32,000 nt of DNA from Aggregatilineales bacterium (GCA_040219275.1 JAVJSU010000072.1:56099-88098), one strand, 5' to 3'; shown: positions 9,095 to 29,210, counted from the first letter of the stretch. Program-made: numbers and translations. The notes: generated by a model not told the origin, from the letters alone.

Positions 9095-10372
9095 CTAAGG
9101 GATTAAGCCGGGCTGATTGCCGGGTTGCAATAAAAGCGTGAAACTGGCTTGTCCGCCACCGCTACGGCTGCGCGGAATATCCCAGACTGTACCAAAATAA
9201 GGGACAACAATTCGTGCCTCAGCCGAGGTCACTACCTGTAACTGGGCATAACCCTGTCCATCCGTAAATGCTTGAGCAATCACCCGATTGGTGCCGACTT
9301 CAACCGCACGGACTGAAATACCGCTCACGCCCTCGGCTGGATCGACATCCCGATTGCCGTTTTCATCGTAGGCAATCACCACTGAAACCGTCAGCAATCC
9401 GGGAGCAATGGGCGTTGACGTGGGCTGAATCGTTGGAGGTGCGGCGACCAATTCAATGCCAGCCGCAGGTTGTGGCACGGGCGAGGGTGTCGCACTGATG
9501 GCAGGTGGCGGAATAATCAGGGTATTGGCAGTGCCACGAAAAACCTGAATAGCATCCAATCCGATCACATAGCCTTCACTGGCAGGATTCTTATTTTGTG
9601 AACTACGGATAGTAAGCGTATGCGCTCCTGTCCCAACGAAATACACCTGTGTGCCGGGATAACTGAGTTCAGTCGCATAGGCATCCACTGTATCTACTAG
9701 CACACCATCCACGATGATGTCGAACATGCCCATATTGCGTGCCGCAACATAGCGAATTCGCAAGCCCTCCCCTTCAAAATGAAAGGCGACGGTGCTACTG
9801 GTATTCTCTGACCGATGATATTGCCCCTGACTGGCTTGAACGACCTGACGGGCTTGCCAGGGGCTGCTGTATTGCACCAGTGGATGATCGGATTCAAAAC
9901 TGTACCAACCTTCATAAGGTGGTGCTTCATGAGTCGCATTTGGCATCGGTTCAACCGGTTGTGGCGGTGCAGGCAGCAAAATCGTTCCCATCGGGAAGTT
10001 GGTTGGCATAGGCGGCACATAAACGCCAGGCATCACCGCTTGCATCTCCAGCAAACGCATCGCTAAAGTCGGTGTGAGCGTCGGCGTGAACGTCGCTGTT
10101 GCGCTGGCTGTTGCTGTAGGACTTGGCGTATCACTTGGCGTGCTGGTTTGCGTTGGCATCACCGTGTGAGTTGGCACATCCGTTGCAGTCAGTGTTGGCA
10201 ACACAAACAGCGTTGGCAAAACGGCAACTGTCGTCTGATGCTTACTCAACAATGCAAAAGCCAGTGCCCAGGTCATCAAACACAAGGCCAACAAGCCCAA
10301 CAAAATCAGGATCATTCTTTTTTGCATACGCCTCCAACTCCTGACAAACAAATACACTCTCCATCTTCGCAA
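9095..10372 (-). CDS. cell-surface protein with TPT-rich linker and C-terminal SdrD-B-like domain
   Basis: N-terminal TM, a long Thr/Pro/Ser linker (PTQTSTPSDTPSPTATASATATFTPTLTPT), a jelly-roll-like middle (VAARNMGMFDIIVDGVLVDTV) and SdrD-B-like VVIAYDENGNRDVDPAEGVSGISVRAVEVGT...AFTDGQGYAQL. Confidence 0.75.
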   Translation of the reverse strand: MRRWRVYLFVRSWRRMQKRMILILLGLLALCLMTWALAFALLSKHQTTVAVLPTLFVLPTLTATDVPTHTVMPTQTSTPSDTPSPTATASATATFTPTLTPTLAMRLLEMQAVMPGVYVPPMPTNFPMGTILLPAPPQPVEPMPNATHEAPPYEGWYSFESDHPLVQYSSPWQARQVVQASQGQYHRSENTSSTVAFHFEGEGLRIRYVAARNMGMFDIIVDGVLVDTVDAYATELSYPGTQVYFVGTGAHTLTIRSSQNKNPASEGYVIGLDAIQVFRGTANTLIIPPPAISATPSPVPQPAAGIELVAAPPTIQPTSTPIAPGLLTVSVVIAYDENGNRDVDPAEGVSGISVRAVEVGTNRVIAQAFTDGQGYAQLQVVTSAEARIVVPYFGTVWDIPRSRSGGGQASFTLLLQPGNQPGLIP

Positions 10373-10458
10373 ATGAGAGCGCTGACAGGCTGTAAAATTT
10401 CAGTTTTGGACTGTAAAAATCGGATTTCGGTGGGGAAAAATACAGCTCCCCACCGGAC

Positions 10459-11094
10459 TTACGAGGAAAAGATGAAGCCTTCAGCGGCTGCCCGACTGAT
10501 CATGTGCTCATTGGTCGTCGCACCAAAACGGACACGTAACTTCTCCCGCACCCAGTACACACGACGCGGATGGATATCCAGAGCGAGTGCAATCTGTCCG
10601 ACATGTCGCCCCTGTGCCAGCAATCGTAAGACACCGCGGGCTTCCTGATCCAGTTGCCAGTCCCGTTGGGGTGTCTGCATGGCAGTCAGATATTCGGCAT
10701 TGGCTGTCGGCGACAAATACAAACGATCCCGCATCACCGTTTCAATCGCACAGATCAGGGAGTCTTGCAATTCATCCCCCTTATACAGGTAGCCATGACA
10801 ACCCGCCGCGAACAAATCCCGGATGAGCAAGCCATCGCGCAGGTAGCCACTGACCAGCACCTTCGTTTTTGCTGAGATTTGCAACACATCTTCCACGATC
10901 TGCAAAATATCCACCTCTGGATCAAGTCGTTCATCAACAACAATCACCTGTGGCTGGCGCTCTACCGCGACTCGTAAATCGCTCAGTGTATTCACACTGG
11001 CTTCCATGATGAATTCAGATCGTCCCTTGAGTACCGCTTCCATTCCCAGACGGATCAGGTCGGCGGCATCGGCAATCATCAATCGAACCTTCAT
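10459..11094 (-). CDS. NarL/LuxR-family response regulator-like protein
   Basis: ORF 10459..11205; likely start MKVRLMIADAADLIRLGMEAVL at 11094. Receiver-like N-terminus plus a C-terminal LuxR-type HTH (RGVLRLLAQGRHVGQIALALDIHPRRVYWVREKLRVRFG). Confidence 0.82.
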   Translation of the reverse strand: MKVRLMIADAADLIRLGMEAVLKGRSEFIMEASVNTLSDLRVAVERQPQVIVVDERLDPEVDILQIVEDVLQISAKTKVLVSGYLRDGLLIRDLFAAGCHGYLYKGDELQDSLICAIETVMRDRLYLSPTANAEYLTAMQTPQRDWQLDQEARGVLRLLAQGRHVGQIALALDIHPRRVYWVREKLRVRFGATTNEHMISRAAAEGFIFSS

Positions 11095-11241
11095 ACAGTC
11101 TCTTCCACCTTTCTGACATGTTAAAACCCAGCATAGCATGACTGCATCTGGAAGCTTCGTCGATATGTACGCCACGCCCGTTAATTTGTACGTGGCGCTC
11201 GTCAATTTTTCATTCAGGTGAAATTAGCGAGAAAGCGAGGA

Positions 11242-11871
11242 TTATTCTCTCAGCAAACCATAGGCCACTGCTGCTGGAATGATCTGCTCATTATTGTTGA
11301 CATGAAGATATTTCTTGATGCGGGTACGGGTATCGTAAATGACGCGCCGCGAGACACCGATTCTGTCGGCAATATCGCGCACCGACTGCCCTGCCGCCAG
11401 TAGATTCAGGACTTCCAGATCACGTTCCGTCAATTCCCGCACACTACGCCGATGATACGGCAGTGCCGCAGCTTCTGAGGATAGATATGTTTCGCCTGCC
11501 AGGATACTCTTGATTGCGGCTGGAATGGTCTCCTCTAACTTGCTCTTGTGATAAATATAGCCTCGTGCCCCACCCGCGAACAAAGCCCCGATATAGTCGG
11601 TGTTGAGACGACTGCCAATCACCACCTGCCCCAATCCGGGATAGTGTTGATGGAGATAGCGCACCAATTTAACCGCATTTTCTTCCTTTGGAAGTTGATC
11701 CGAAAGCAACAGGATACGGGCACAAACGGTTTCTAGATGAGCAACAAGTGTCTTGAAGTCAGCAAAATCATGTACCTGCCCTGTCGGCACGCCAGTCTTT
11801 TCAACCAGCATCCGCAGTCCATTGCGACTGAGTGCCTCTTTGTCTAGGATTACGATCCGGGCTTGTTTCAC
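11242..11871 (-). CDS. NarL/LuxR-family response regulator-like protein, paralogue of the neighbouring gene
   Basis: MKQARIVILDKEALSRNGLRMLV...GYIYHKSKLEETIPAAIKSILAGETYLS...LTERDLEVLNLLAAGQSVRDIADRIGVSRRVIYDTRTRIKKYL; canonical LuxR HTH. Confidence 0.87.
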   Translation of the reverse strand: MKQARIVILDKEALSRNGLRMLVEKTGVPTGQVHDFADFKTLVAHLETVCARILLLSDQLPKEENAVKLVRYLHQHYPGLGQVVIGSRLNTDYIGALFAGGARGYIYHKSKLEETIPAAIKSILAGETYLSSEAAALPYHRRSVRELTERDLEVLNLLAAGQSVRDIADRIGVSRRVIYDTRTRIKKYLHVNNNEQIIPAAVAYGLLRE

Positions 11872-14679: not shown

Positions 14680-14707
14680 CCTATATATATGGTTGTATAT
14701 ATATAGG
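14680..14707. promoter_or_regulatory. perfect 11-bp inverted repeat upstream of the parM-like gene
   Basis: CCTATATATAT (14680-14690) / ATATATATAGG (14697-14707) with a 6-bp spacer, in the divergent intergenic region between the parM-like and MerR-like genes. Confidence 0.6.
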
Positions 14708-14789
14708 GGGGTCTTTTTTGCTCCTTAGAGTTAAAATTGCCTTCTTTTTCGTAATTACACTACGGGATTAAAGCTATAATATAGAGTAC

Positions 14790-15428: not shown

Positions 15429-15815
15429 ATGAGCAAGAAAAAGCAACAAGGACATTATTGTAGGGTCTGTGGACGTTACCGAGCCAACGAAAAATTTAGC
15501 GGAAAAGGTCATCGACAGCATATCTGCAAGGACTGTAATCGTAACCAGCAAGCACAAAAGCGTGAGAAGAAACACGCAACAAAGCAAGCTGCTGAAGTTG
15601 GGTTACCAGTGCCCAAGCGTTATCCGATGACACGTTACCAGGCAGCCAGCTATCTCGGTATCACACCATCTGCATTTGATTATCGGCGTAAAAAACTAGA
15701 GCTGGAGCCATCTGGAACCTACGAGGGGAAACAGGGTACAGGCTTTCTCTTCGATATGGAAACAATTATCGCTGTTTACCGATACAGCCAAACGGATGGT
15801 AGTAACTCGGAGTGA
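15429..15815 (+). CDS. small zinc-ribbon plus HTH-like protein
   Basis: CRVCGRYRANEKFSGKGHRQHICKDCNR zinc-binding module, then a basic linker and YPMTRYQAASYLGITPSAFDYRRKKLELEPSGTYEGKQGTGFLFDMETI. Confidence 0.68.
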   Translation: MSKKKQQGHYCRVCGRYRANEKFSGKGHRQHICKDCNRNQQAQKREKKHATKQAAEVGLPVPKRYPMTRYQAASYLGITPSAFDYRRKKLELEPSGTYEGKQGTGFLFDMETIIAVYRYSQTDGSNSE

Positions 15816-15844
15816 ATTATGGCAGTGCAAATGACAGAATAGGG

Positions 15845-16010
15845 AATTGTGTCATTGTGGCAAATGGCATTTCCACTGCCGCATTTTTAACGGGTTTTTA
15901 TAGGTCTAAAGAGTTCAAAAATTAGGTAATTTTACGATTATTTGTCATAAACCGTCAAAAACAGGTCGGAAATGTAGCATTTAATGTGGCAGTAAACCTA
16001 TTGCCATAAT
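15845..16010. repeat. copy 1 of a duplicated intergenic regulatory region
   Basis: Near-identical to 19791-19956. The first ~77 bp (AATTGTGTCATTGTGGCAAATGGCATTTCCACTGCCGCATTTTTAACGGGTTTTTATAGGTCTAAAGAGTTCAAAA) is identical; similarity extends through TTTAATGTGGCAGTAAAC.TGTTGCCATAAT-like sequence. A short shared AATTATGGCAGTG also precedes both copies. Confidence 0.95.
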
Positions 16011-16036
16011 TCACCAGATATACATACGAGGAAATA

Positions 16037-17056
16037 ATGGAGCAAAAACTATCTGTACAAATCCTAACGTATCTATGCAACCTCATCATGACATCGCCCT
16101 ATAGAACAATGCGTGAACTGACTATCTTCTTCAAACAATTCGATGTACCCGATGTGTATGGTAACCCGTCACGCACAAACTACACTGAACAGCAACTTAT
16201 TGAATTAAATAATCAGGGAAAGCTCATCTCTGTTATTGAACAAGCAGTTGATCCAAGAAATTTCTTTGAATCAGAAATTGACATTGAAGAGATCATTGCG
16301 GAAGCCAATCGGTTTCTTGCTCTTGATGATCTTTTACTCATAAAAGCAAGGAATGGCTACAAAGTAAAGCTTCTGGGAAATCGTCATCATTCTGGTCAAC
16401 CGATAAAGAACATCATTTTTGGCTCTACAGGACCAAAACCAGATATCGTTCTTCGTGATGCACTGACTAATCAAATCGAAATCACTCAAAATGCTGAACA
16501 CTGCCTAGTCTATGATCACCACATCAATGACGAAGCAGGGTTGTCATGGGATGAACTGGTCGAGTGGTGGATGAGTTTGAATCAGTTGAAAAGCAGAAGT
16601 GATATTATTGAAAGAGAACTCTATCAACGGTTGAGGAAATCAATCCCCGAAACATCACCACCCGCCCGCAACTTGTTTCATTCTTACTATAGCTTTAAGC
16701 AACAGGGGATTCAGCGGCTTCCTGCATTACTTCCAGAGGTATATCTTCACTTTGATCCTAAGACCATTATTGAACGAAATGGGAAAAAGGTTCTGAACCG
16801 ACAGCGAATGGATTTCCTTTTGTTATTGCCATACGATGTGCGTATCGTGATTGAGGTCGATGGCAAACATCACTATGCGGATGGGGATATCGCAAGCCCT
16901 GAAAGATATGGCGAGATGATGATGGAGGATCGAGAATTGAGATTGATGGGCTATGAAGTGTATCGCTTTGGTGCAGTGGAGCTAAACAAGTCTATTGCTG
17001 AATCTAATGTAAAGAGCTTTTTTCGGCGCATATTCAAAAAGTATGGTATTTTGTAG
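16037..17056 (+). CDS. PDDEXK-like (DUF559/Vsr-type) nuclease domain protein, possibly AbiJ-like
   Basis: C-terminal LNRQRMDFLLLLPYDVRIVIEVDGKHHYADGDIASPERYGEMMMEDRELRLMGYEVYRFG matches the D...ExDGxxH arrangement of Vsr/DUF559-like endonuclease folds; unrelated helical N-terminal region. Confidence 0.72.
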   Translation: MEQKLSVQILTYLCNLIMTSPYRTMRELTIFFKQFDVPDVYGNPSRTNYTEQQLIELNNQGKLISVIEQAVDPRNFFESEIDIEEIIAEANRFLALDDLLLIKARNGYKVKLLGNRHHSGQPIKNIIFGSTGPKPDIVLRDALTNQIEITQNAEHCLVYDHHINDEAGLSWDELVEWWMSLNQLKSRSDIIERELYQRLRKSIPETSPPARNLFHSYYSFKQQGIQRLPALLPEVYLHFDPKTIIERNGKKVLNRQRMDFLLLLPYDVRIVIEVDGKHHYADGDIASPERYGEMMMEDRELRLMGYEVYRFGAVELNKSIAESNVKSFFRRIFKKYGIL

Positions 17057-17127
17057 TAAAGTTCCCCATGAAGTGTGAACTCGTGGTATTCTTATAGTGC
17101 AACTCAAAACTGTTAGAAAGAATCAGA

Positions 17128-17379
17128 ATGCAAAGTGCGATGACACAAATATTTGACAACCCGGTAGACGGCTGGGTGACAATGAAAGAGGCTGGTCGAA
17201 TCATAGACCGTGATACCTCAACCATTCGTTACTGGGCAGAAAATGGCAAGATCGCTTGCTTTAATGTTGGCACCAGTAACATTCGCATTGTTAATGTAGA
17301 GCAAGTAAAAGAATACTCAGCTAAGCATTCTTATCGTCTTGATAGACCAAAGCGTAGTCAGAAGAAGAAAACAGAGTAG
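17128..17379 (+). CDS. small excisionase/MerR-type HTH protein
   Basis: GWVTMKEAGRIIDRDTSTIRYWAENGKIACFNVGTSNIRIVNVEQVKEY, typical Xis/MerR-like HTH with wing and Lys-rich tail. Confidence 0.75.
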   Translation: MQSAMTQIFDNPVDGWVTMKEAGRIIDRDTSTIRYWAENGKIACFNVGTSNIRIVNVEQVKEYSAKHSYRLDRPKRSQKKKTE

Positions 17380-17851
17380 GGGAGTTGGCAAATGTTCCCA
17401 CTTTGTTGTAAACTGTGGACGTAGTAAAAAATCGTTAGTGATTTATAAAAGAGGCATGTACTAATGGATCCATAAAGGGGAATGATTTAGAAGGGTAGTT
17501 GGCGCGGACTTGCCATCCGAGCAGTTGTCACTGTGCCTAGAATCAGCGAAGCCCTCTGTATTTTGGTTAGCCGCCTACATCCAGAGAGCTTTATCCAATC
17601 CCACCGGGGTGGACTTGTAAAGCCCCGGACTAGGTTCGCTTTGTTATTTCATATAATAGCGGATTTTGTTCGAGTTTGCAAGTTAACGCTCCTTAAACTT
17701 GTCGGTGGTTTTGGTAGGAATCTTCCAACAAACAGGTTTTTTGACACTACCCGATGCACCAGTGTTTCATTTTTGTGATATGATAAAATCCTAGAATATT
17801 TGTTCGTATTTGGTGATTGAACTATGTCACAAAAAACAAGGAGAAATTAGG

Positions 17852-18112
17852 ATGCAACAACGCGAAAGTCCCTATTTGGAGCCGAGCCAATCTACGTCAA
17901 TGCCTGGCAAGCCCGTCGTAGATCGACCCGGTGAACCACGACTGAACAGAATCAAAGACTCTGTTCAAAGTGATCTAATATTATACCATCGTTTGAAAAA
18001 AGTTTCATCAAGCGTGTATTTTCACAGGTTTCTTCATGTGGTTCGTTCTCGCAACGTTCAGCCTTTTTGCAATCACTTCCAGAGTTCAGGAAGAGATAAC
18101 AGGGTTATTTAA
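17852..18112 (+). CDS. small hypothetical protein
   Basis: ORF track 17810..18112. The internal ATG at 17852 has a strong AAGGAGA ribosome-binding site, giving an 86-aa product MQQRESPYLEPSQSTSMPGKPVVDRPGEPRLNRIKDS.... Coding status not certain. Confidence 0.4.
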   Translation: MQQRESPYLEPSQSTSMPGKPVVDRPGEPRLNRIKDSVQSDLILYHRLKKVSSSVYFHRFLHVVRSRNVQPFCNHFQSSGRDNRVI

Positions 18113-18136
18113 AACACGTGAAGGAGCGGTCTAATT

Positions 18137-19756
18137 ATGAAACTAACCCGCGAAGATGCTTATGCCTTTCGCCGTATTATGACGAAAATGGATATACCTG
18201 ACGGACTAACACTTAGTCCCGTTACACGATTGTTGATTGATACTCTTGATCCAGTCAACAAAAAAGAGGGTTGGCAAACGCTCTACGATATGGTGATGCG
18301 TGATCAGTCTATTGTTGAACAGGTCATGTTCATTGATCCTAAAGCAGAACTACCAGAAGACTTGAAAGTCTGTGATGAATTGTATGTGCCGCCGTTGCCT
18401 AAAGCTGCTCAGCTTGATGAAAAACTTATCAAGTCTGCGGAAGGGGTAGGGCGCTTTCATCGTGACTGCACCAATTGGCTCAAGCAAAAATCACCTATGA
18501 CTCCGCATATTTTTCTGGAGTCTGCGCCGTTGTGGGCAGTTGGCTTAGCGATTGCTCGCCGAGCTGTATTGCGTTTGCCATTCAGTGATATTCATCCCAA
18601 TTTGTACATTCTGTGGTCAGCACCAACCACGTATTATCACAAAAGTACTGGCTTGAAGGCGATGACCCAACTGGTACGTAGTGTCTTGCCTCATCTATTG
18701 CTCGCGGAAACAACCACGCCTGAGATGTTGATGGCGAAACTCGCTGGGCAGAAGCCAACAAACTATGATCAGCTTCTCCCTAGCGAAAAGAAGCTGGAGG
18801 ATATGGGCAGCCGTTTTGCTGGACAGCGCGGTATGAGTATTGATGAAGCCAGCAAGATTCTTATCCCAAAGAAGTATATGGAAGGGCACTCTGAAGCACT
18901 AATGCAATTATTCGATGGGGGAGATCGCATGGAACGCGAGCTTCGAGGTGATGGCAAGCTCATCATCTACAATCCATCGTTGTCATTGATTGGTGCAACC
19001 ACGCCAACCATGCTTTCCCGGTATATGTCCGATACAGAGTGGGAAAGTGGGTTGATGGCACGTTTTATTGCATTAACACCCGCTGAAAAAGATATGCCTT
19101 TTGTCGTAAGTGATCCCTCGCCTGAACTTGATCGAATGACTGAAGGATTGAAGTCACGCCTGCACCGCATTCATAACGCCTTTCCCCAACCACCTGAATG
19201 GGAAGCTCTCTATAACTCGCAGGAATCAGTACAGTTGCCAAGCATTGACGTGTTACTTGAGCCAGAAGTCATGGCACGTTTCAACACTTATTCAAAAGCC
19301 ATGCATGAGTTAACTGATCCGCGTAATGGTTTGGATGAGCGTTTACGTGGTAACTATGGACGCTTGCCAGTGCTAACAGCAAAATTATCTCTCATCCTTA
19401 CCTTGATGGACTGGGCGGAGGATGGTGCAAAAGATGCACCGCGTATCACTTTAGCACATTGGGCAAGAGCGCAGATTCTCTCTGAAGAATATCGGGCATC
19501 AGCACATCGTTTGCTAGCGGAACTTAACGTCAGCCAGGATGTGAAAAATGAGCAGAAAATTTTAGATTTCCTTGCACGCGCTCAAAAAGATAAGCCACCA
19601 ACCAAACGAGAAATTCATCGAGGCACTGGTATCAAAAATCGTAAGGAAGCATATGCTGCTGTCGATGCTTTGGTTGAGTCAGGCGTAGTTGAATCTGTTG
19701 AGCGTAAATCTTCGCGAGGTAGGGGAGCTACAGCTTTTGTCATTAGTGAAGAATAA
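18137..19756 (+). CDS. DUF3987-like replication-associated protein
   Basis: 539 aa. NLYILWSAPTTYYHKSTGLKAM sits at the Walker A position; the pattern LSLIGATTPTMLSRYMSDTEWESGLMARFIALTPAEKDMP resembles DUF3987/DnaB-like proteins. Adjacent to a CHC2 primase-like gene. Confidence 0.6.
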   Translation: MKLTREDAYAFRRIMTKMDIPDGLTLSPVTRLLIDTLDPVNKKEGWQTLYDMVMRDQSIVEQVMFIDPKAELPEDLKVCDELYVPPLPKAAQLDEKLIKSAEGVGRFHRDCTNWLKQKSPMTPHIFLESAPLWAVGLAIARRAVLRLPFSDIHPNLYILWSAPTTYYHKSTGLKAMTQLVRSVLPHLLLAETTTPEMLMAKLAGQKPTNYDQLLPSEKKLEDMGSRFAGQRGMSIDEASKILIPKKYMEGHSEALMQLFDGGDRMERELRGDGKLIIYNPSLSLIGATTPTMLSRYMSDTEWESGLMARFIALTPAEKDMPFVVSDPSPELDRMTEGLKSRLHRIHNAFPQPPEWEALYNSQESVQLPSIDVLLEPEVMARFNTYSKAMHELTDPRNGLDERLRGNYGRLPVLTAKLSLILTLMDWAEDGAKDAPRITLAHWARAQILSEEYRASAHRLLAELNVSQDVKNEQKILDFLARAQKDKPPTKREIHRGTGIKNRKEAYAAVDALVESGVVESVERKSSRGRGATAFVISEE

Positions 19757-19790
19757 CGTAATTATGGCAGTGGATAAGTCAGATATAGGT

Positions 19791-19956
19791 AATTGTGTCA
19801 TTGTGGCAAATGGCATTTCCACTGCCGCATTTTTAACGGGTTTTTATAGGTCTAAAGAGTTCAAAATTTAGATGATTTTTCGATTATTTGACATAAAACG
19901 TCAAAAATCGATTAAAAATGTGTCATTTAATGTGGCAGTAAACTTGTTGCCATAAT
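19791..19956. repeat. copy 2 of the duplicated intergenic regulatory region
   Basis: See 15845-16010. This copy lies immediately upstream of the primase/dpd operon. Confidence 0.95.
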
Positions 19957-19971
19957 TATCTGAGGTGTCAA

Positions 19972-20979
19972 ATGATAGATGTTGAACGTATCAAAAATCG
20001 TGTTGACTGCCGTGATTTGATTGAGCGTGATCTGGGCAGACCGAAGTATCGGAACAACACACATAGTAAGTACAAATGTCCGCTTCATAATGAAGAGAAG
20101 GGCTACTCACTGGTTGTTTATGCCGATCACTGGAATTGTTTTGGCGCTTGTGGTCATGGTGGCGATGCCATTTCGTGGCTTCAGGAATATCATAGTATGT
20201 CATTTCAGGAAGCATGTGAACGACTTACATCAGGTGATCTACCGATTATCGATCAAGTTAACCGTTCACGACAACCCAAGATCGAGCCTATATCTGAACC
20301 GCCAGATTCTGGTTGGCAAAAGGCAGCACGCAAGATTGCCCAACAAGCAATGGATACGTTGTGGGGTAAGGAAGGTAAACGTGCCTGGCGTTATCTGGAA
20401 GAAGAACGTGGCTTAACCGAAGATACTATCGTTGCGGCTGGTCTGGGATACATTCCGGGTGACTATCGTGAATGGAAAACAATAGAAGGATTGAATGTCC
20501 CGTGCGGAATTACGATTCCATGGTTCGCATCAGGAGCGATTTGGGGTATCAAAGTTCGTCGTGCTACGGGTGAGCAACGCTACCATCAGGTTGGTGGCGG
20601 AAATCTCAAAGGTGGACTCTATTTAGCGGATTCCATCGAACCCGGTTTGGCAATCCTAATCACAGAAGGGGAGTTCGACGCACTAATCGCAAAACAGACT
20701 GGTGCAGGGCTGATCGCCTCAACAGCTATCGGAAGTGCGGCGAATAAACGTATCAATTCACGCTGGTTTCCAAAGTTTATCACTGCACCGAGTATCTTCA
20801 TCCGGATGGATGATGATCATGCGGGGCAGGGGGCTTCAGAAAAAATTGCGGGTTTATCACAGGCGACACAATGTATACAGGTTCCGCAAGGTAAAGATGT
20901 GAATGATTTTTACATACTTGCAGGACACGATGCCGTACATAATTGGATCATTGAGCTTATCGGAGATAATGAGAAATGA
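19972..20979 (+). CDS. DnaG-like primase with CHC2 zinc finger and Toprim domain
   Basis: YKCPLHNEEKGYSLVVYADHWNCFGACGHGGDAISWLQ is a CHC2-type finger. Toprim motifs are ILITEGEFDALIAKQTG and FIRMDDDHAGQGASEKI. Confidence 0.85.
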   Translation: MIDVERIKNRVDCRDLIERDLGRPKYRNNTHSKYKCPLHNEEKGYSLVVYADHWNCFGACGHGGDAISWLQEYHSMSFQEACERLTSGDLPIIDQVNRSRQPKIEPISEPPDSGWQKAARKIAQQAMDTLWGKEGKRAWRYLEEERGLTEDTIVAAGLGYIPGDYREWKTIEGLNVPCGITIPWFASGAIWGIKVRRATGEQRYHQVGGGNLKGGLYLADSIEPGLAILITEGEFDALIAKQTGAGLIASTAIGSAANKRINSRWFPKFITAPSIFIRMDDDHAGQGASEKIAGLSQATQCIQVPQGKDVNDFYILAGHDAVHNWIIELIGDNEK

Positions 20980-21538: not shown

Positions 21539-23458
21539 ATGCTCCCAAGATTCACAGTTAGCGAAAAATCTCGCAGAGGCCGTTTAGGTTCATTTGAATT
21601 TCAAAATGGTATTAAAAGTATATCTACTCCATTTATGTTTCCTGTTGCATCTACTGTTACAGGAACAACAGCTAATGGTGGTGGCATTTGGCGTTACGTT
21701 CTACAAGCGTATCCTGAAACGTACGACGAAGATGCAAGCGAGCTAAAAAGCCAGTCTCTCATGCGTCGAGGGACTCCGATTCTCTCACAGGTGTTACAAT
21801 TCTTAGATTATGGTGTTAGTCCGTCCAAGGTACAGTATTGGCGGGATGAGTCCATTCGCAAAATGTATAATGATGCACACACCATGGATTACCGTGCGCC
21901 AATTTTTCTGGATTCTGGAGGATTCAAGCTTATGTGGCGCGAAGGACTGGATCTCGATGCCTATGGTATTGATCTCAGTAAGTCCGCTGAAGCTCGGAGT
22001 ATTTCACAGCTTCAGTACGATCTGGGTGCAGACATCATCGCCAGTTTGGATTATCCAATTCCACCTAATCTCGCACCTGCTGAGGCTCGTGAGAGGATGA
22101 AACGTAGCCGAATGAATGCCATCCGAGTAGCTCGTGACTTACGCGACAAGAGGTTTCCCGGCTGGCGTCCGTTCTTTTACATGCCTGTTCACGGGTTGTC
22201 ACCTGAATCCATTACCTATTATATTGAACAATTATTTGGGCGTATAAGATACTATGATCTCGAAGGTGAGCCATTGGGTATTGCTATCGGTTCATTGGTA
22301 CCGTTGCGATTTTCACGTACCAACTTGTATAAGATTATCGAAATTGTTAATGCGGCTGTAAACGCTATACCAGAGCGCTTAAGAGATCAAATTCCTGTTC
22401 ACGTTTTCGGCGTAACAGGTACAGTGCTTCCTTACCTTGCATACTGCGGTGTGGATACATTTGATTCCAGTACATATGTTAAGGAGGCAATTAATCTCAA
22501 GTATATGGACCCTGACACGCGCGCGGGTCATGCCGTGTTAGAGATGACAGAGGATAGCTTTCATTGCCAGTGCGACATTTGTCGGTACCTGAATCTGCGT
22601 GAGGTTCAGGTCGCATTAGCAACGGATAGTAAGGGTAAACCGTTGCCACCACACAATCATCATAAAAGCAAATACTATGCTGATATTGCGTTGCACAATT
22701 TGGAACAAGACATTCAAATTGTCAGGGAGACTAGGGATGCAATTAACCAGGATTGTATGAACGAGTACATCATTCAGATGACAGAGCGCTTTCCCCGAAT
22801 GCGATATGCGCTCGATGCTCTCTGCCAAATCGATGATAGTCTCAAAGGACAAGTATCACGGGTACTACAACCGATCGAAAAACCTCTCAAAAAGACAAGC
22901 CCGAAGATCTACCAAACGTTTACACACACGGCTGACGACTTCGATCTTGCGCGAATGAATGGTAACCTTAGTGCAATTCTCACACCACCGCGCATCGCAC
23001 TTTTATTGCCATGCTCAGCCGATAAACCGTATTCCACCTCCCGAACCCACAGTTATGTGGAGCGGTACTTAGAGGAGTATTTCCCAGAGCAAAGAAACCG
23101 CATTCATAAGGTATCTTTATCAGGCTTATATGGTCCAGTTCCCGAAGATTATGAGTCCTATGAACCAATACTCAATTACAACTATCGACTTACTCCTGAA
23201 AATCAAGCACAGATCAAGTTGGTGTCCAAACGGCTCTTAGATTACTTGGAAGCATACCGGACAGGCTACACACATTATGTTGCCTATGCTACCAGCAAGG
23301 CTTATCGTATTGTCTTTGAACGGGTAGCTGAGGACTTTAAAGAGCTTACTGTATTGCCATCAGCACCAAAGTCGCGTCGACTAACAGAATTCTTTAGGGC
23401 TACGAATATCCAAGAGCTTGTACAATTTATAGACATAGCTCTTAATACTGATCTTTAG
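21539..23458 (+). CDS. dpdA: DpdA-like 7-deazaguanine DNA transglycosylase (TGT superfamily) with ArcS-like C-terminal domain
   Basis: TGT-type APIFLDSGGFKLM, ADIIASLDYPIPPN, FMPVHGLSPESITYYIEQLF and zinc ligands CQCDIC...H. C-terminal LLPCSADKPYSTSRTHSY matches the ArcS signature. Neighbouring genes encode DpdJ/DpdK-like proteins, QueC and YhhQ. Confidence 0.85.
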   Translation: MLPRFTVSEKSRRGRLGSFEFQNGIKSISTPFMFPVASTVTGTTANGGGIWRYVLQAYPETYDEDASELKSQSLMRRGTPILSQVLQFLDYGVSPSKVQYWRDESIRKMYNDAHTMDYRAPIFLDSGGFKLMWREGLDLDAYGIDLSKSAEARSISQLQYDLGADIIASLDYPIPPNLAPAEARERMKRSRMNAIRVARDLRDKRFPGWRPFFYMPVHGLSPESITYYIEQLFGRIRYYDLEGEPLGIAIGSLVPLRFSRTNLYKIIEIVNAAVNAIPERLRDQIPVHVFGVTGTVLPYLAYCGVDTFDSSTYVKEAINLKYMDPDTRAGHAVLEMTEDSFHCQCDICRYLNLREVQVALATDSKGKPLPPHNHHKSKYYADIALHNLEQDIQIVRETRDAINQDCMNEYIIQMTERFPRMRYALDALCQIDDSLKGQVSRVLQPIEKPLKKTSPKIYQTFTHTADDFDLARMNGNLSAILTPPRIALLLPCSADKPYSTSRTHSYVERYLEEYFPEQRNRIHKVSLSGLYGPVPEDYESYEPILNYNYRLTPENQAQIKLVSKRLLDYLEAYRTGYTHYVAYATSKAYRIVFERVAEDFKELTVLPSAPKSRRLTEFFRATNIQELVQFIDIALNTDL

Positions 23459-23481
23459 TTTTTATTGCGAGGAAATTATTA

Positions 23482-26400
23482 ATGTGGGCCAATCTACATC
23501 ACATCCTTTCTCAGATGTTCCATGAACTCAATGACGGGCAACCCCTCGAATCTCCCCAAAAACTATGGCAGAGATATCAACATGAGATACGTGCAATTCT
23601 TGATAATCCAGATGTTGATGACGAAGCTGTTATGGCTGTTAAACGTCATCTAGTTGAGATTGGCCCTGATATTTGGATTCCACAATCTTATGAGGCGGTC
23701 AGGGTATTGCAACAGTTGAAGCAACGTTTTTCCGCCGATGCAGAAGACCCTAATCCCCTCGTCGCGCAGCTTCGAGTTGAGGCACTAATTAGACGGCGGC
23801 CTGTTCGTGATATCCTGAGATCGAGCCTTGAAGAAGGGAAAATATCCCGAATTCTGGCGGATATTGGTCAGAAACACAAATATTCTCGTTTTCAAGTTGA
23901 TGGTTGGCGTCGAATACTCGAAGCTATAGGTGTACTCAAACATGACAATGCCCCTGAAAGTGTGGTGGTGGTGGCCCCGACAGGTTCAGGTAAAACTGAG
24001 GTCTTTCTCTTACCGGTTATTTATCACATTGCGAGTAAGCTCAACTCCAATGATGTGCCACGTTACATTATGATCTATCCACGTGTAGAGTTGCTGAAAG
24101 ATCAAGTTTCACGCAATCTAAAGTATGCTTATCGGGCCGAACAGCAATTTACTGATGGTCAGCAGTCAACATTCAATGGGCATCGGCAGGCCAAACACCC
24201 CTTTGTCGTTGGTATTCAATTTGGTGGTGTGAGATCCACTTATCAAGGGACCTTCAAAGAGAGAAGCCTGTTCGATGAGCAGAAGTATTTTCTTTTAGTA
24301 CCAACCTGTCCCATTTGTGAAGATAACATGCGTGAAGGCAATGAACAATGTGGAAGGTTGAAAGCAGGGCGTGCTAATGGGAGAGTAATTCCTTTGGAGT
24401 GTGACAATCTGAGTTGCGGTGCTGTCTTCCACGTCACTATTGGGAAAAACGATCATGCTGAAGCCCGAATTAAGCCGCACATACTTGTTACAACCATGGA
24501 ATCACTAGATAGACTGTATCTCAATCCCAAATTAGAGAGTTACATTCGCAACATTCAGGGCATCCTTCTTGATGAAGTTCACCTGTTTCACTCCCTATAT
24601 GGTGCACATATCTATAACCTTATTCGCAGAATTGAAGCTTTTCAAGAACATGGACAACCTTTGTCAAAGATTGCAGCGTCGGCAACAGTCTCTAACCCTG
24701 GACGCTTTATATCACGACTATTTTATGGCGTAGATGAGGACTCGCGTGTTGAAGTTCTGGACGCTGAACACTCTCATTACGATTTGGAGGATGCAGGTCT
24801 CGAAACTGTAGTGTTTCTACAAACTACGGAAACAGAAAGCTTTTCGCGAACGCAATCTACTCTGCTCCAGACAATCATGGCTGTTGGACACAGTGTATTG
24901 GGTGCTGATGAGCGGGCAATTGTATTTACAGAGTCTATCGATCATGCTAATCGAACCTACAGGCAACTTCTTGATGAGGAAAACGAAAAACGTTTGTGGC
25001 AGTTCCGAATGGCAGTGAATGATATTAAGTACAACGATGCAACTTGTCCAGCGACAAGCCCATTGGAATGCGACCATATCTATGCTAAAGGCGAATGCTG
25101 GCGTGCAATCCGTGGTGGTGTGCAATGTCATACGAACCTCATTGAGCCGTTTATAATTAATCGACCACTCAATGTCGATGTCATCACTTCGCAAGATCGT
25201 GGCAACTATTGGGATCCGGATGTGATCGTCGCAACTCCCGTACTTGAGGTCGGTGTTGATGATGAACGATTCAAAGCAACCATTCACTATCGTCCGCCTC
25301 AGTCCGTTTTTTCGTTCCTACAGCGCAGAGGCCGCGCTGGTCGTAGTGCAGGTGACACTGCCTATAGCATACTTGTTTTGGGACGTACACCGTCAGATGA
25401 GTTTTATTTCCGTCGCCGCAATCGCCTGATGGATCCAGGTAACTTCGAGTTACCACTCAATCCACGCAATGTTATCATCCAGAGTATGCATGATCAACTC
25501 GAGATTGAACGTGAAACAATTGGAACATATGTCAATCAGATGGGTAATCTTTCGAAGGCGATATTCCGATGGATGATAGAGAAGTATCTACGATGCCAAA
25601 CTTTATCACGGGTATTTGGAGAGAAACTCACTGAACTGCAAAATTCTGTTTTGCGCCAAGACAGTGATCATCAAACCTTGCAACAGGATTTTACGCAGTG
25701 GATCCGTGATCAGCATGATCGTTTCAAACGTCATTTGGATCTTGATCTCTTGCTTGATGAATTGACTTCACGAGTGCCTGTTGATCAACGTGGCAATGTC
25801 ACAAGATTTAGCGAAATGATATATGCCTACCGAAACAAAGAAGGAGTAGATATCGAAGAGATTAAACAACTCGGCAAACAAATTGCTATGGCGCTAGAAA
25901 GCATAATTTTCGACACTGAAGAAGAACTCGAGCAAGAGAAATATAAGCTACTACAGAATCTCATAAGAAAAATTACAAAAGACCATCAATCCATTGAACA
26001 GCTTGATATTGAGGCTGACCAGCGTCTTATCTCAGCACTCTATGACTACTTCAATTTACTTAAAGCACGCATTGTTGATGAGCGCTATCCGGGCACACTA
26101 AATCGAGCCGAAGATATGGTGAAGATAGTTTTACAGTCTCTCTTCTATATTGGTAATGCGTGTTTGTCACGACATTCTCATTGCGAGTCATGTACTCGTT
26201 ATTTTGTGCCAGATGCATATTTTCAGGAAGTTAAGCCAATTATTGTTGAGACATGGACAAACCGTGGCAAGAATCTTCAGGCTGAAATTCACGTAGAAGA
26301 TACAACAAAACTAGCCAACATGCTGTTGCCTTATAAAACATTCTACAGGTATTTCAGCGATCAAGATGCAATGGCTGTTTTGCGTACTACAACCAGTGCA

Positions 26401-27648
26401 GACTGGGTTTCACACGTCCGAAATCAGACCATAGTTCGTCTTGAACCAGGTATTGTCGGCGTACAGCGTAAAGTTTCTGATGAAATTACCGGCATTGAAC
26501 CCAACAAGATACATGTTGTTCCAATCCGACCTGATAAAGAAGGGCAGGGTGTGGTTGGTTTATGCCTCAATTGTTATGCTTTGCACCGTGCAAGTTACAA
26601 CGGTACATGTAGTACATGCGGCAATACTGAGATTACGAAGGTTCGCTTACGCTCTGAAGCAATTGTTCGGAGACAGGCTCTTTTCAAAAATGCGCTTCAA
26701 ATCTCGGATACTTTCTGGTATTGCCATGATCTTACAGGACATGTTCAGATTGATGGTGCTAATGTCCGTTATATTCGACAATGGTTTGATGGAGAGCAGT
26801 TCAAGAGTGTTGGAGGAGATCCTCAAGAATTTACGGCACTATATTATCGTAATGGTGAGGTTCCCTATCCCATTGTCTACGATCTTGTTACGCATGGCAT
26901 TGCTTGGGATTTGAGCAATGTTATTAGCCATATTTTGGGTGATGAGCAACTTCGAGAGACGATTTCACATTATCCGGATAAGAACTTTGATGCTGAGTTA
27001 ATCTTGCATACCGCATCTCATATGCTTCACAAAGCAATTGCCTCAATCAGTGGTGTGAACGACATTACACTTGAGTATGCTATTCAACGCAGTGGTATTG
27101 ATGGACGCGAGCGTGCGATGGTGGTGGTGTGGGAGCGCTACGAAGGTGGTGTAGGTATTTCCGAGATTATTCGAGACACACTGCAAGAAGATCCAATCTT
27201 ATTCTATCGAGAGCTACTCGCATCAGCACTTTGCCCAGTCTTTTATGCTGAGGACACTCAGTGGCCGGGCACCGATGAAAGTCTAAGACGGATTCTTTCA
27301 GAAAGATGGGCACTCGATGGCGAAGATATTCTAATCGATGGGATTATCCGCGAAGTAAAAGCCGAACGTGGTGCAATAGTAGCGCGGCAAGCGGAAGCAT
27401 CTCAAGCATGTAGTGAAGATGATGGTTGCCCTGCCTGTGTCCATGTTACAGTTTGCACTGAGCATATTGAACAGCCCCATAAGGTCAGCCGTTTTGTCGC
27501 AGAAGCCATTATGGATTATTTCCGCCTAACTGTGGATAACACTCGACTCGAGGCGATGAATCGGTATCGTAGAGAGACTCACGGAAGTGAAGCATTCCAA
27601 CTAAGACATAACCTTGAAGAGGATGTGTACGACATTGTGCGCTTTTAG
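23482..27648 (+). CDS. dpdJ: DpdJ-like superfamily 2 helicase with C-terminal DUF1998-type cysteine cluster
   Basis: 1388 aa. Motif I APTGSGKTEV, motif II LDEVH, motif VI QRRGRAGRS, several cysteine pairs (CPTCPICEDN, CESCTRYF, CLNCYALHRASYNGTCSTCG) and terminal DDGCPACVHVTVC. Sits directly between dpdA-like and PLD genes. Confidence 0.78.
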   Translation: MWANLHHILSQMFHELNDGQPLESPQKLWQRYQHEIRAILDNPDVDDEAVMAVKRHLVEIGPDIWIPQSYEAVRVLQQLKQRFSADAEDPNPLVAQLRVEALIRRRPVRDILRSSLEEGKISRILADIGQKHKYSRFQVDGWRRILEAIGVLKHDNAPESVVVVAPTGSGKTEVFLLPVIYHIASKLNSNDVPRYIMIYPRVELLKDQVSRNLKYAYRAEQQFTDGQQSTFNGHRQAKHPFVVGIQFGGVRSTYQGTFKERSLFDEQKYFLLVPTCPICEDNMREGNEQCGRLKAGRANGRVIPLECDNLSCGAVFHVTIGKNDHAEARIKPHILVTTMESLDRLYLNPKLESYIRNIQGILLDEVHLFHSLYGAHIYNLIRRIEAFQEHGQPLSKIAASATVSNPGRFISRLFYGVDEDSRVEVLDAEHSHYDLEDAGLETVVFLQTTETESFSRTQSTLLQTIMAVGHSVLGADERAIVFTESIDHANRTYRQLLDEENEKRLWQFRMAVNDIKYNDATCPATSPLECDHIYAKGECWRAIRGGVQCHTNLIEPFIINRPLNVDVITSQDRGNYWDPDVIVATPVLEVGVDDERFKATIHYRPPQSVFSFLQRRGRAGRSAGDTAYSILVLGRTPSDEFYFRRRNRLMDPGNFELPLNPRNVIIQSMHDQLEIERETIGTYVNQMGNLSKAIFRWMIEKYLRCQTLSRVFGEKLTELQNSVLRQDSDHQTLQQDFTQWIRDQHDRFKRHLDLDLLLDELTSRVPVDQRGNVTRFSEMIYAYRNKEGVDIEEIKQLGKQIAMALESIIFDTEEELEQEKYKLLQNLIRKITKDHQSIEQLDIEADQRLISALYDYFNLLKARIVDERYPGTLNRAEDMVKIVLQSLFYIGNACLSRHSHCESCTRYFVPDAYFQEVKPIIVETWTNRGKNLQAEIHVEDTTKLANMLLPYKTFYRYFSDQDAMAVLRTTTSADWVSHVRNQTIVRLEPGIVGVQRKVSDEITGIEPNKIHVVPIRPDKEGQGVVGLCLNCYALHRASYNGTCSTCGNTEITKVRLRSEAIVRRQALFKNALQISDTFWYCHDLTGHVQIDGANVRYIRQWFDGEQFKSVGGDPQEFTALYYRNGEVPYPIVYDLVTHGIAWDLSNVISHILGDEQLRETISHYPDKNFDAELILHTASHMLHKAIASISGVNDITLEYAIQRSGIDGRERAMVVVWERYEGGVGISEIIRDTLQEDPILFYRELLASALCPVFYAEDTQWPGTDESLRRILSERWALDGEDILIDGIIREVKAERGAIVARQAEASQACSEDDGCPACVHVTVCTEHIEQPHKVSRFVAEAIMDYFRLTVDNTRLEAMNRYRRETHGSEAFQLRHNLEEDVYDIVRF

Positions 27649-28105
27649 AGCTTTGCCGCGGATAATTGCAGAAATGCTTCTGGCAGCACCCAAATCCTCA
27701 GAGATATGTATTGTCAGTCCATGGATTCGTGAAGTTTTGCTGAAGCCTCCGATTATCGTGGGCACAGAAGGTGTGCTAGCTCAACACAAAACACCACTCA
27801 GCGAATTCCTTCATTTGCTTGTGTCTCGTAGGCACGTGCATTTGCACATATTTGTTCGAGAGTTTGACCGCGACATACGCACTATTACTCATGAAGTAAG
27901 GTTAGTGTTCCCTAATTCTATTCATATTCACGAAGAGCCACACCTACATGCCAAAGTGATTGCTACATCAAATAGCATTCTACAGATGTCAGCCAATCTA
28001 ATACCCACTAGCCTCTATCGTAACATCGAAACCTGTGCTATATCGACAAATAGGTACGGCTCTGCACGAACTTACACACATAACGAGCTGAAATTGGTTT
28101 TCTGA
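27614..28105 (+). CDS. dpdK: DpdK-like phospholipase-D-family protein
   Basis: EICIVSPWIREVLL, HLHIFVREFDRDIR, EEPHLHAKVIATSNSILQMSANLI, a single HxK PLD-like motif; overlaps the helicase 3' end. An in-frame TTG at 27653 (MPRIIAEMLLAAPKSSEICIVSPW) is an alternative start. Confidence 0.72.
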   Translation: MKRMCTTLCAFRALPRIIAEMLLAAPKSSEICIVSPWIREVLLKPPIIVGTEGVLAQHKTPLSEFLHLLVSRRHVHLHIFVREFDRDIRTITHEVRLVFPNSIHIHEEPHLHAKVIATSNSILQMSANLIPTSLYRNIETCAISTNRYGSARTYTHNELKLVF

Positions 28106-28109
28106 TATT

Positions 28110-28529
28110 ATGCCAAAGATTTACATCGCAGGTCCATTGTTTAATAGCCACGAGCGACGCTATCTTGAAGAAATAGCTGAAACGTTTGAGACATCTGGCT
28201 ATCCAACTTTTTTGCCGCACAGAGATGCTGGACTGGTTGATCGTTTGGATGAGACTACGCGCCGAACTATATTCCTTGCCGATCTAAAAGCATTAGACGA
28301 ATGCGATATATGTATTGCACTGCTCACTGGTGCAGACCACGACTCGGGTACTTCGGTGGAATTGGGATATATGTATGCGAAGGGTAAACCCTGTTTTGGC
28401 ATCACTGATGATATGAGGTGGATGAATAACATGATTTGGGGAGTATGCGGTTACGGACGGAATATTGCCTCCACCATTGGTGAGTGTATTAAACTCGTCA
28501 ATCAATTCGTTAATCAGGGACTTGTATAG
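28110..28529 (+). CDS. nucleoside 2-deoxyribosyltransferase family protein
   Basis: MPKIYIAGPLFNSHERRYLEEIAETFETSGYPTFLPHRD...CDICIALLTGADHDSGTSVELGYMYAKGKPCFGITDD, a textbook NDT fold signature. Confidence 0.88.
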   Translation: MPKIYIAGPLFNSHERRYLEEIAETFETSGYPTFLPHRDAGLVDRLDETTRRTIFLADLKALDECDICIALLTGADHDSGTSVELGYMYAKGKPCFGITDDMRWMNNMIWGVCGYGRNIASTIGECIKLVNQFVNQGLV

Positions 28530-29193
28530 GACTAAAGGGCATTGTAGAAGCGTCAGCATCAATTCCCTCTTGCCTTCTGAAAAAGCTCACCGTTGCATAG
28601 GTTAGTGGTGTTGCCATTGCTTCGTAAGCAGTCTTGAACAGCCACTGGGTGATAATGGCTGTTGCCAACTCATTGGTTGCGATCGTTCCACCAAATGCCA
28701 CGACGATGAATATCAGTGAATCCAGTCCCTGTCCGACAAAAGTCGATCCAATCGTTCTCGTCCATAACCACTTGCCCTTTGTTAGAGCCTTCATTCTCGT
28801 CAAGACATAGGCGTTCGTAAATTCGCCAATCAGATACGCGATGAAGGATGCCACCAGCAAACGAGGCGTGTATCCTAGAATTCGCTCATACGCCTCTTGT
28901 CCATCCCAGAAACCAGCAGGTGGAAGGAGTTGCCCGGCAATGAGACCGACTACGGCCAATAAGTTGCAAAAGAAGCCTAGCCAGATAACTCGTCGCGCAT
29001 TCTCGTATCCGTACACTTCAGTTAGAATATCGCCAACGATATAGCTAATGGGGAAAATTACTATTCCTGCTGGCATGATTAGGCCGAAAACATCTACTAG
29101 TTTTACGGCTGCGATGTTGGCAGTGATCAATGAGGTGATAAATACACCAACAATAGCTACAAACCAAATTGAATATCCGTTTCTTGTATCCAT
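28510..29193 (-). CDS. yhhQ: YhhQ/VUT-family queuosine precursor transporter
   Basis: TANIAAVKLVDVFGLIMPAGIVIFPISYIVGDILTEVYGYENARRVIWLGF and FVGQGLDSLIFIVVAFGG are diagnostic of the family. Confidence 0.93.
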   Translation of the reverse strand: MDTRNGYSIWFVAIVGVFITSLITANIAAVKLVDVFGLIMPAGIVIFPISYIVGDILTEVYGYENARRVIWLGFFCNLLAVVGLIAGQLLPPAGFWDGQEAYERILGYTPRLLVASFIAYLIGEFTNAYVLTRMKALTKGKWLWTRTIGSTFVGQGLDSLIFIVVAFGGTIATNELATAIITQWLFKTAYEAMATPLTYATVSFFRRQEGIDADASTMPFSPIQVPD

Positions 29194-29210
29194 ATGTTCT
29201 GCTTCCTAGG

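Follow-up and report, generated by a model that had tools for sequence, protein, structure and literature searches.

A duplicated repeat module beside a DUF3987 helicase gene in an Aggregatilineales bacterium: candidate iteron arrays with an origin-like arrangement

Introduction

The stretch of 32,000 nucleotides (nt) analysed here (the window; positions count from its first letter) comes from an Aggregatilineales bacterium (GCA_040219275.1, JAVJSU010000072.1:56099-88098) and is part of an integrative, probably conjugative element. On its plus strand, a gene for a DUF3987 helicase of 539 amino acids (aa) (18137-19756; Pfam DUF3987, E = 2e-17) is followed by a gene for a DnaG-type primase with CHC2 zinc finger and Toprim domains (19972-20979). 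The gap between the two is filled by one copy of a repeat module (copy B, proximal, 19760-19957, plus strand), directly upstream of the primase gene. A second copy (copy A, distal, 15815-16011, plus strand) is situated 3.9 kb upstream, between a 128-aa zinc-ribbon/helix-turn-helix (HTH) gene (p128) and a 339-aa variable cargo gene (16037-17056, plus strand), where it heads the block that runs from an AlpA-like gene to the helicase. An initial annotation, made from the sequence alone, took the two copies for a duplicated promoter-like region that would subject a candidate nuclease and a candidate modification operon to the same regulator.

Helicases of the DUF3987 family occur frequently in integrative elements, satellites and phages. 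One protein that combines PriCT and DUF3987 was shown to have 5'-3' helicase activity and to bind the neighbouring primase-polymerase, and the two together have been proposed to form a mobile-element replicase (PMC11724360). In literature searches we found no paper on a cognate DNA site for a DUF3987 helicase. In this study, we describe the structure and conservation of the module and compare its variants with the proteins encoded around it. Hereby the C-terminal winged helix of the helicase emerges as the probable reader of the repeats, and copy B as a likely origin or helicase-loading site.

Results

Extent of the repeat

Repeat detection, MAFFT alignment and BLAST were concordant on the two window copies, which share 88.9% identity over 197/198 nt with one 1-nt indel (BLAST E = 4.6e-67). 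The near-identity of 15845-16010 and 19791-19956 reported initially is real, and the repeat reaches about 30 nt further left than 15845/19791; the run of about 77 identical bases measures 76 nt (15845-15920 = 19791-19866) and is the longest between the copies. Identity is highest at the ends, with 61/62 positions in the 5' block, 64/78 in the middle and 31/33 in the 3' block. Outside the copies, identity drops to what chance would give (5/35 positions upstream, 7/25 downstream), and the repeat is accordingly restricted to intergenic DNA. Copy A begins at the stop codon of the p128 open reading frame (ORF), which ends at 15815, and 25 nt separate its end from the ATG at 16037. Copy B begins 4 nt past the helicase stop codon and ends 14 nt ahead of the ATG at 19972, and the placement of both copies just before start codons was thus correctly noted. 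A third copy was not found by BLAST in the window.

Anatomy of the module

Each copy can be divided into three parts, namely a block of repeats at the 5' end, an AT-rich spacer and, at the 3' end, two units of the same repeat in inverted arrangement. The conserved blocks are made of one 8-9-nt unit with the consensus AWTRTGGCA, in direct and inverted orientation. The 5' block of copy A (15817-15880, plus strand), which contains the conserved core, opens with the direct unit TTATGGCA (15817-15824), fused to GTG to form the left arm GGCAGTG (15821-15827). There follow a TGACAG unit (15832-15837), a spacer, the three tandem units TTGTGTCA (15847-15854), TTGTGGCA (15855-15862) and AATGGCA (15863-15869) with a period of 7-8 bp, and an inverted unit, the right arm CACTGCC (15874-15880); 46 nt lie between the arms. 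The AT-rich spacer (15881-15983), whose sequence differs among elements, falls to 27% GC. The 3' iteron pair (15984-16009) comprises ATGTGGCA in direct (15984-15991) and TGCCATAA in inverted orientation (16002-16009), giving TGGCA-N10-TGCCA.

Copy B repeats this layout, with a 5' block at 19762-19826 on the plus strand (TTATGGCA 19762-19769, TTGTGTCA 19793-19800, TTGTGGCA 19801-19808, AATGGCA 19809-19815, CACTGCC 19820-19826), a spacer at 19827-19929 with GC down to 25%, and a 3' pair at 19930-19955 (ATGTGGCA 19930-19937, direct; TGCCATAA 19948-19955, inverted). The GC content of the spacers (25-27%) compares with a window mean of 47%. The motif [AT]T[GA]TGGCA matches 13 times in the window, and eight of these matches fall inside the two modules, that is within about 400 of 32,000 bp. 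The module termini form an inverted repeat of 10-13 bp, AATTATGGCA...TGCCATAATT, which is composed of the first and the last iteron.

Conservation in related elements

The module pair is not a private duplication of this element. Scanning a genome collection with the primase gave a single locus, L001 (related loci carry L numbers), whose coding DNA is about 75% identical to that of the window and which has the module at both positions. Nine more loci were found when metagenome contigs were scanned for exact matches to a 23-nt core; the seven that can be placed are all syntenic, with the module after p128, between helicase and primase, or ahead of AlpA. L004 has no recognisable backbone gene and its module copy closely resembles one of the two copies in L010, which lie 934 bp apart and are accompanied by AlpA, downstream of the second copy, as the only identifiable gene. 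The copy A position is kept in L001, L002, L006 and L010, the copy B position in nine related loci, including L001, L005, L007 and L008 with modules as in the window (type 1) and L011, L017, L021 and L022 with the second type described below. As both copies are kept at the same positions while the coding DNA is only about 75% identical, the module is under selection.

The core TGTCATTGTGGCAAATGGCATTTCCACTGCCG (32 nt) is invariant in 14 copies from 11 sources, and the 3' element ATGTGGCA-N10-TGCCATAAT is well conserved across elements, whereas the middle of the module is variable. In the window the spacer is nearly identical between copies A and B, unlike in L001, which points to recent gene conversion across the spacer on top of long-term selection on the end blocks. 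The selection and recombination suggested at first are both reflected here, the former in the conservation, the latter in the spacer, and the same duplication is indeed found at the same two places in relatives. The relatives carrying the module are conjugative-element contigs of uncultured Chloroflexota/Anaerolineae, and the helicase homologues are annotated from metagenome-assembled genomes of the same groups. No match was obtained in plasmids for the module or the helicase (BLAST), in E. coli genomes for a 12-kb query (BLAST), or in viral contigs for the type-1 and type-2 cores (exact-match scans).

A second specificity type

L011-13, L003, L017/18, L021 and L022 carry a type-2 module of the same architecture, built from the unit AACYTGTCAA, with an arm spacing of 46-47 nt as in type 1. 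Where type 1 has TGGCA, type 2 has TGTCA, and this holds for the direct repeats, both arms and the 3' set alike. L024 holds a third variant, a module of 392 nt with five repeats of about 40 bp, each of them with GAATTATGGCA. The types of the distal and the proximal copy agree in five of the five elements in which both are visible (window, L001, L011, L021, L022). L003 and L018, from the same metagenome, could not be joined as a sixth concordant pair, since their contigs do not overlap.

The nature of this change bears on the question of whether the module acts as RNA. An intrinsic terminator or attenuator, or a small RNA, would be formed where the upstream genes end, by a GGCAGUG...CACUGCC stem with a U-run behind it. 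The 5' block begins at the upstream gene's stop codon, a 5-bp hairpin with a T-run is flagged in both copies, and the replacement of GGCAGTG/CACTGCC by GTCAGTG/CACTGAC in L017, L022 and L015 looks compensatory. The same G-to-T change, however, also occurs in the unpaired direct repeats and is more easily explained by an altered binding site than by the preservation of an RNA stem. Moreover, at least seven modules (L001B, L006, L007, L014, L019, L020, L023) have uncompensated arm mismatches, the enclosed loop measures 46-47 nt, the T-run is absent from L015, L019, L020, L023 and L024, the left arm is missing from L021 copy B, and Rfam gave no match (gathering threshold for the window and L001; permissive scan of copy A). 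We regard an RNA-level element as very unlikely. A minus-strand small RNA expressed from TTGACG-N18-TAAAAT was also considered and rejected, for its hexamers are unconserved in other elements.

The two types and their positions bear likewise on remnants of a miniature inverted-repeat transposable element (MITE) inserted twice, and on a chance pair of sigma-54 promoters. The terminal inverted repeats of 10-13 bp recall a MITE, but they are simply the outermost iterons; a target-site duplication was not found at either copy, there are no copies elsewhere in the window or in the host flanks, and placeable copies occupy two or three syntenic positions. The mobile-element remnants that the initial annotation had named as an alternative are not upheld by these observations. 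As to sigma-54, TGGCAT-N5-CTGCC fits the GG-N10-GC spacing, but the GG/GC motif is lost in type-2 modules of the same architecture and a Sigma54_activat domain was detected in none of the scanned window proteins. An origin of the pair by either route is barely credible.

Module type and the helicase winged helix

Every backbone protein was compared between type-1 and type-2 elements. In the helicase, 10 of the 11 strict type-specific residues are located within residues 486-531, inside a predicted winged-helix domain (residues 471-539; 19547-19756, plus strand) that is the putative iteron reader. Window and L017 (type 2) helicases are 96.4% identical over residues 1-470 and 65.2% over residues 471-539, whereas window and L001 (type 1) show the opposite pattern, with 77.4% and 87.0%, respectively. 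At the nucleotide level, window and L017 are 90-98% identical outside a cassette at 19550-19971. The divergent cassette comprises the last ~65 helicase codons (55-70%) and module B (~45%), and identity returns to 98% exactly at the primase start.

The wing allele RGRGATA goes together with TGGCA-core iterons, and RGPSTTA with TGTCA-core iterons. The module type was predicted from the wing sequence alone, before the DNA was looked at, and the prediction came true: at both positions of L021 and L022 (wing RGPSTTA) the iterons are of type 2, and about eight ATTGTGGCA sites are present in L025 (wing RGRNATA), whose helicase is 69% identical and whose genomic context differs. An AlphaFold2 model of the helicase, built from a 55-sequence alignment (predicted local distance difference test, pLDDT, 88), consists of an AAA+ core followed by a helix-helix-helix-beta-hairpin at residues 467-536; of the type-specific residues, 505 and 509 fall on the recognition helix, and 524 and 529-531 on the wing. 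In the PDB, Foldseek matched the full model best to MCM subunits, to RuvB and to archaeal Orc1/Cdc6 on origin DNA, each of which is an AAA+ protein ending in a winged helix; for the C-terminal 84 residues taken alone, the matches were the winged helices of MarR, PadR, Z-alpha, PerR and LexA, with template modelling (TM) scores of 0.6-0.7. C-terminal winged helices are also carried by P4 alpha and pRN1 ORF904 (PMC2777425).

The other backbone proteins behave differently. Neither the primase nor p128 has type-specific residues. The DNA-binding domains of the LexA-like proteins of L008 (type 1) and L011 (type 2) are near-identical, the MerR-like proteins of L001 (type 1) and L003 (type 2) share 83% identity, and the two type-2 AlpA-like proteins are only 41% identical to each other. 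The MerR-like protein of the window is only 27-33% identical to those of L001, L003, L009 and L011, which makes two lineages that are unsorted by type; a MerR-type promoter, with the palindrome between -35 and -10, was rejected on this account. Among the protein sequences compared, the helicase C-terminal winged helix is the only feature that tracks module type.

Chromosome-embedded helicase-primase units

A conserved four-gene unit of ParA (274 aa), a 399-aa protein, DUF3987 helicase and primase is present in L014, L015/16, L019, L020, L023 and L025. There it sits among housekeeping genes on Anaerolineae contigs of 64-307 kb, with the helicase at about 10001-11640. These units may represent the replication/partition module of a chromid, or a domesticated element. 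They carry only the 5' iteron block (~70 nt) in the ~96-nt gap between helicase and primase, and p128, AlpA and the LexA-like gene are not present there. The retention of the 5' block ties it to the helicase/primase pair, and since a gap of ~96 nt leaves little room for a promoter, a promoter role is disfavoured.

These units and the protein comparison allow the regulatory interpretation to be weighed. The module could be a shared operator/promoter cassette through which a transcription factor of the element (p128, the AlpA-like protein, the LexA-type winged HTH or the MerR-like protein) co-regulates two operons. Both copies are upstream of genes in the same orientation, palindromic sites lie near the ribosome-binding sites, several small DNA-binding proteins are encoded nearby, the type-1 5' block always follows p128, even in type-2 elements, and the chromosome-embedded units are devoid of both the LexA-like gene and the 3' iteron pair. 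Against this, none of the four regulators co-varies with module type, and the 5' block is retained in units without all of them. The promoter-like character assigned at first did not stand, as the candidate hexamers are conserved neither between the copies nor across elements: plus-strand matches in or at the edges of the module occupy non-equivalent positions in A and B, and those shared in position are only on the minus strand. CATAAT occurs inside the last iteron, 14-25 nt from the ATG, and a -10 element in the 3' repeat is disfavoured because it would cut the ribosome-binding site. We judge an operator/promoter cassette to be unlikely. The notion of one regulator for both copies survives in part; a common trans-acting factor is probable, but the MerR-like (14830), LexA-like (20976) and HTH (17128) proteins named for this role do not co-vary with type.

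Other cis-acting sites of a conjugative element come into question as well, namely a partition centromere for a ParM-like system or a duplicated origin of transfer. Short-repeat arrays are typical of centromeres, and genes for a ParM-like ATPase, a VirB4-like ATPase and a TrbC-like pilin are present on the element. However, the window (type 1) and L003 (type 2) share 97% identity in the ParM-like protein and its 141-aa partner, and the module is also found between helicase and primase where no conjugation genes are nearby. Such a function is improbable to much the same degree as an RNA-level one.

Discussion

A putative helicase-loading site and its second copy

It appears somewhat probable to us that each copy is an iteron array for the element's own DUF3987 helicase. 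Copy B would then serve as origin, and copy A would provide a further set of sites for binding or control; we infer helicase binding, origin activity and the role of copy A from the anatomy, conservation and types of the repeat, its co-variation with the helicase domain and the predicted fold. The winged-helix domain at the helicase C-terminus would be the iteron reader. The outermost sites point towards each other, as in the origins of self-loading helicases of Staphylococcus aureus pathogenicity islands (SaPIs) and phage-inducible chromosomal islands (PICIs), and it is copy B, directly behind the helicase gene, that we consider the likely origin or loading site of the helicase. Helicase hexamers might dock by their winged helices on the iterons flanking the AT-rich spacer of copy B, melt the spacer and load themselves, upon which the adjacent primase would begin synthesis. 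Copy A, presumably bound by the same protein, could act like P4 crr, or pair with copy B by looping or by handcuffing as a copy-control set. Alternatively, it could serve as a second loading site, or as an autoregulatory operator which throttles transcription into the AlpA-to-helicase block.

Several observations weigh against these proposals. The segment coding for the winged helix adjoins copy B, and their joint exchange could reflect linkage alone; the concordance of the distal copy argues against pure linkage, but it rests on five elements. In type-2 elements a type-1 5' half-module lies right after p128 (L003 811-887, L011 8437-8511; equivalent to window 15815-15890), which may be a recombination scar or have a separate, p128-linked function. 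Two matched copies are present in five of the six elements with both positions visible, and L024, with a single expanded module and no distal copy, demonstrates that two copies are not obligatory. The chromosome-embedded units do not possess the AT-rich spacer and are thin for a complete origin. The true origin could also reside in the conserved non-coding region at 17470-17800 described below. Finally, SaPI Rep1 discriminated poorly between origins in vitro (PMC9371898), from which it follows that winged-helix specificity may not be the whole story.

Comparison with known replication systems

SaPI Reps are self-loading MCM-like helicases whose C-terminal winged helix recognises iterons of 5-6 nt, and in the SaPI origin six to twelve iterons follow rep directly; its centre is AT-rich, and each side has two or more iterons, with opposite directions on the two sides (PMC9371898); Gram-negative PICIs have the same organisation (PMC6092414). 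Copy B resembles these origins in its position immediately 3' of the initiator-helicase gene, whereas copy A differs in that it follows p128, and both copies share with them the opposed sets of short iterons around an AT-rich centre. The helicase is predicted to have an MCM-like AAA+ domain with a C-terminal winged helix, which co-varies with iteron type and may read the iterons likewise. Allelic variants of Rep/ori specificity, and alpA, primase and integrase genes in the neighbourhood, are further common features. On the other hand, the helicase is assigned to the DUF3987 family and not to the SaPI Reps; Pfam/NCBIfam scans gave DUF3987 only, and no chain among the 50 Foldseek matches listed is described as a SaPI Rep. 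The DnaG-type primase is downstream of the module here and upstream of rep there, the iterons measure 8-9 nt as compared to 5-6 nt, and the host element is conjugative-looking (VirB4-like, pilin), belongs to uncultured Chloroflexota and has a second full copy 3.9 kb upstream.

In the phage-plasmid P4, octamer iterons occupy two separated cis regions, ori and crr, a few kb apart and served by one initiator, the alpha primase-helicase. Two separated iteron regions and a putative initiator with a predicted C-terminal winged helix are found here too; however, P4 alpha fuses primase, SF3 helicase and winged helix, whereas helicase and primase are separate in this element and the ATPase is MCM/Orc-like. 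The Omega protein of pSM19035 is a ribbon-helix-helix repressor and at the same time a centromere protein that uses heptad arrays. Like the module, Omega arrays consist of 7-8-bp repeats in mixed orientation and are reused before several operons of one element, but no ribbon-helix-helix protein co-varies with the module here. In P1-type plasmids (incC/incA), split iteron sets bracket the initiator gene. Here, too, the putative initiator gene is bracketed by two arrays, inverted sites near gene starts could mediate autoregulation, and the second array could limit copy number by handcuffing. The Reps of P1-type plasmids, unlike this helicase, are winged-helix initiators that form dimers and have no helicase activity, and they use iterons of 17-22 bp. 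Iteron plasmids and Rep autoregulation have been reviewed (PMC4980987).

Taken further, the locus might belong to a conjugative Anaerolineae island that replicates autonomously by means of a DUF3987 MCM-like helicase and a two-site iteron system, in which a cassette of winged helix plus iterons is swapped between near-identical elements to give new incompatibility types. We put this forward tentatively and with more doubt than assent. If true, DUF3987 helicases would gain their first defined origin, and Chloroflexota their first replicon of this kind. Confirmation would extend the SaPI/PICI design of self-loading-helicase origins to another helicase family, a conjugative-type element and a poorly studied phylum, and would mean that the swap of one small cassette re-keys a replicon. 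The locus offers a testable pairing, as at least two winged-helix specificity alleles are matched to 8-9-nt iterons.

Genomic context and cargo genes

The left part of the window encodes on the minus strand a VirB4/TraC-like ATPase, a TrbC-like pilin, several large unknown proteins, two LuxR-type regulators, an AbiU2-like gene and the ParM-like ATPase. On the plus strand, a MerR-like protein of 181 aa (14830) and p128 (zinc ribbon and HTH-like) precede copy A. The 339-aa gene, an AlpA-like gene (83 aa), about 430 nt of non-coding DNA, an ORF of 100 aa and the helicase gene lie between copies A and B, and copy B is followed by the primase and a LexA-type winged HTH protein of 151 aa. Next come, on the same strand, the cargo genes for an archaeosine-type tRNA-guanine transglycosylase (TGT), a DpdJ-like helicase, a DpdK-like protein and a nucleoside deoxyribosyltransferase; the right part carries on the minus strand a YhhQ-like transporter, QueC and a tyrosine integrase.

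Concerning the 339-aa protein downstream of copy A, the initial call of a PDDEXK-like nuclease was not borne out. The protein has weak similarity to AbiJ_NTD3, a sub-threshold match and the only one obtained; no nuclease domain was found, and NCBIfam, PADLOC and PDB yielded no match. The gene is absent from L001, L011, L021, L022 and L024. In L006, a near-identical metagenome copy, it is split by an insertion of ~970 bp (364-1338; equivalent to window 16070-16075), possibly an insertion sequence, and this disruption fits dispensable cargo. The GC content of the gene region is about 33-42%, below that of its neighbours, and is consistent with recently acquired cargo.

The slot after the LexA-like gene carries different DNA-modification cargo from element to element (window 21539-29870; L011 13545-21540). 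In the window it comprises the archaeosine-type TGT of 639 aa (TGT + DUF5591), the DpdJ-like helicase, the DpdK-like protein, a nucleoside 2-deoxyribosyltransferase, the YhhQ-like transporter and QueC; PADLOC and NCBIfam scans of this cargo gave no match to the DpdB and DpdC models. L011-13 hold a thymidine-modification-like set instead, with HMUDK_hel, a thymidylate-synthase-like gene, and dNK, HD and NTPase genes. From one relative to the next, the 339-aa gene and the dpd-like cargo change independently of each other while the module pair stays, and the idea of a restriction/modification pair kept in balance is for this reason unsupported. In the annotation, it would be wrong to take the duplicated DNA for a regulatory connection of a nuclease with the dpd-like genes.

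Further non-coding features

About 330 nt of non-coding DNA (17470-17800) between the AlpA-like gene and the 100-aa ORF/helicase are conserved. RNAalifold on seven elements gave 61 pairs in this region, 11 of them with compensatory changes (e.g. CCACCGGGGTGG vs CCGCCGGGGCGG), and the region terminates in the invariant TGTGATATGAT; it has no Rfam match. An 81-aa 'ORF' at 17533-17778 is probably spurious, because relatives have no gene called there. The region is a candidate for a new structured RNA or leader, or for an alternative origin site. A perfect palindrome, CCTATATATAT-GGTTG-TATATATATAGG, is located at 14682-14709 in the divergent gap between the ParM-like and MerR-like genes and may be a centromere or an operator.

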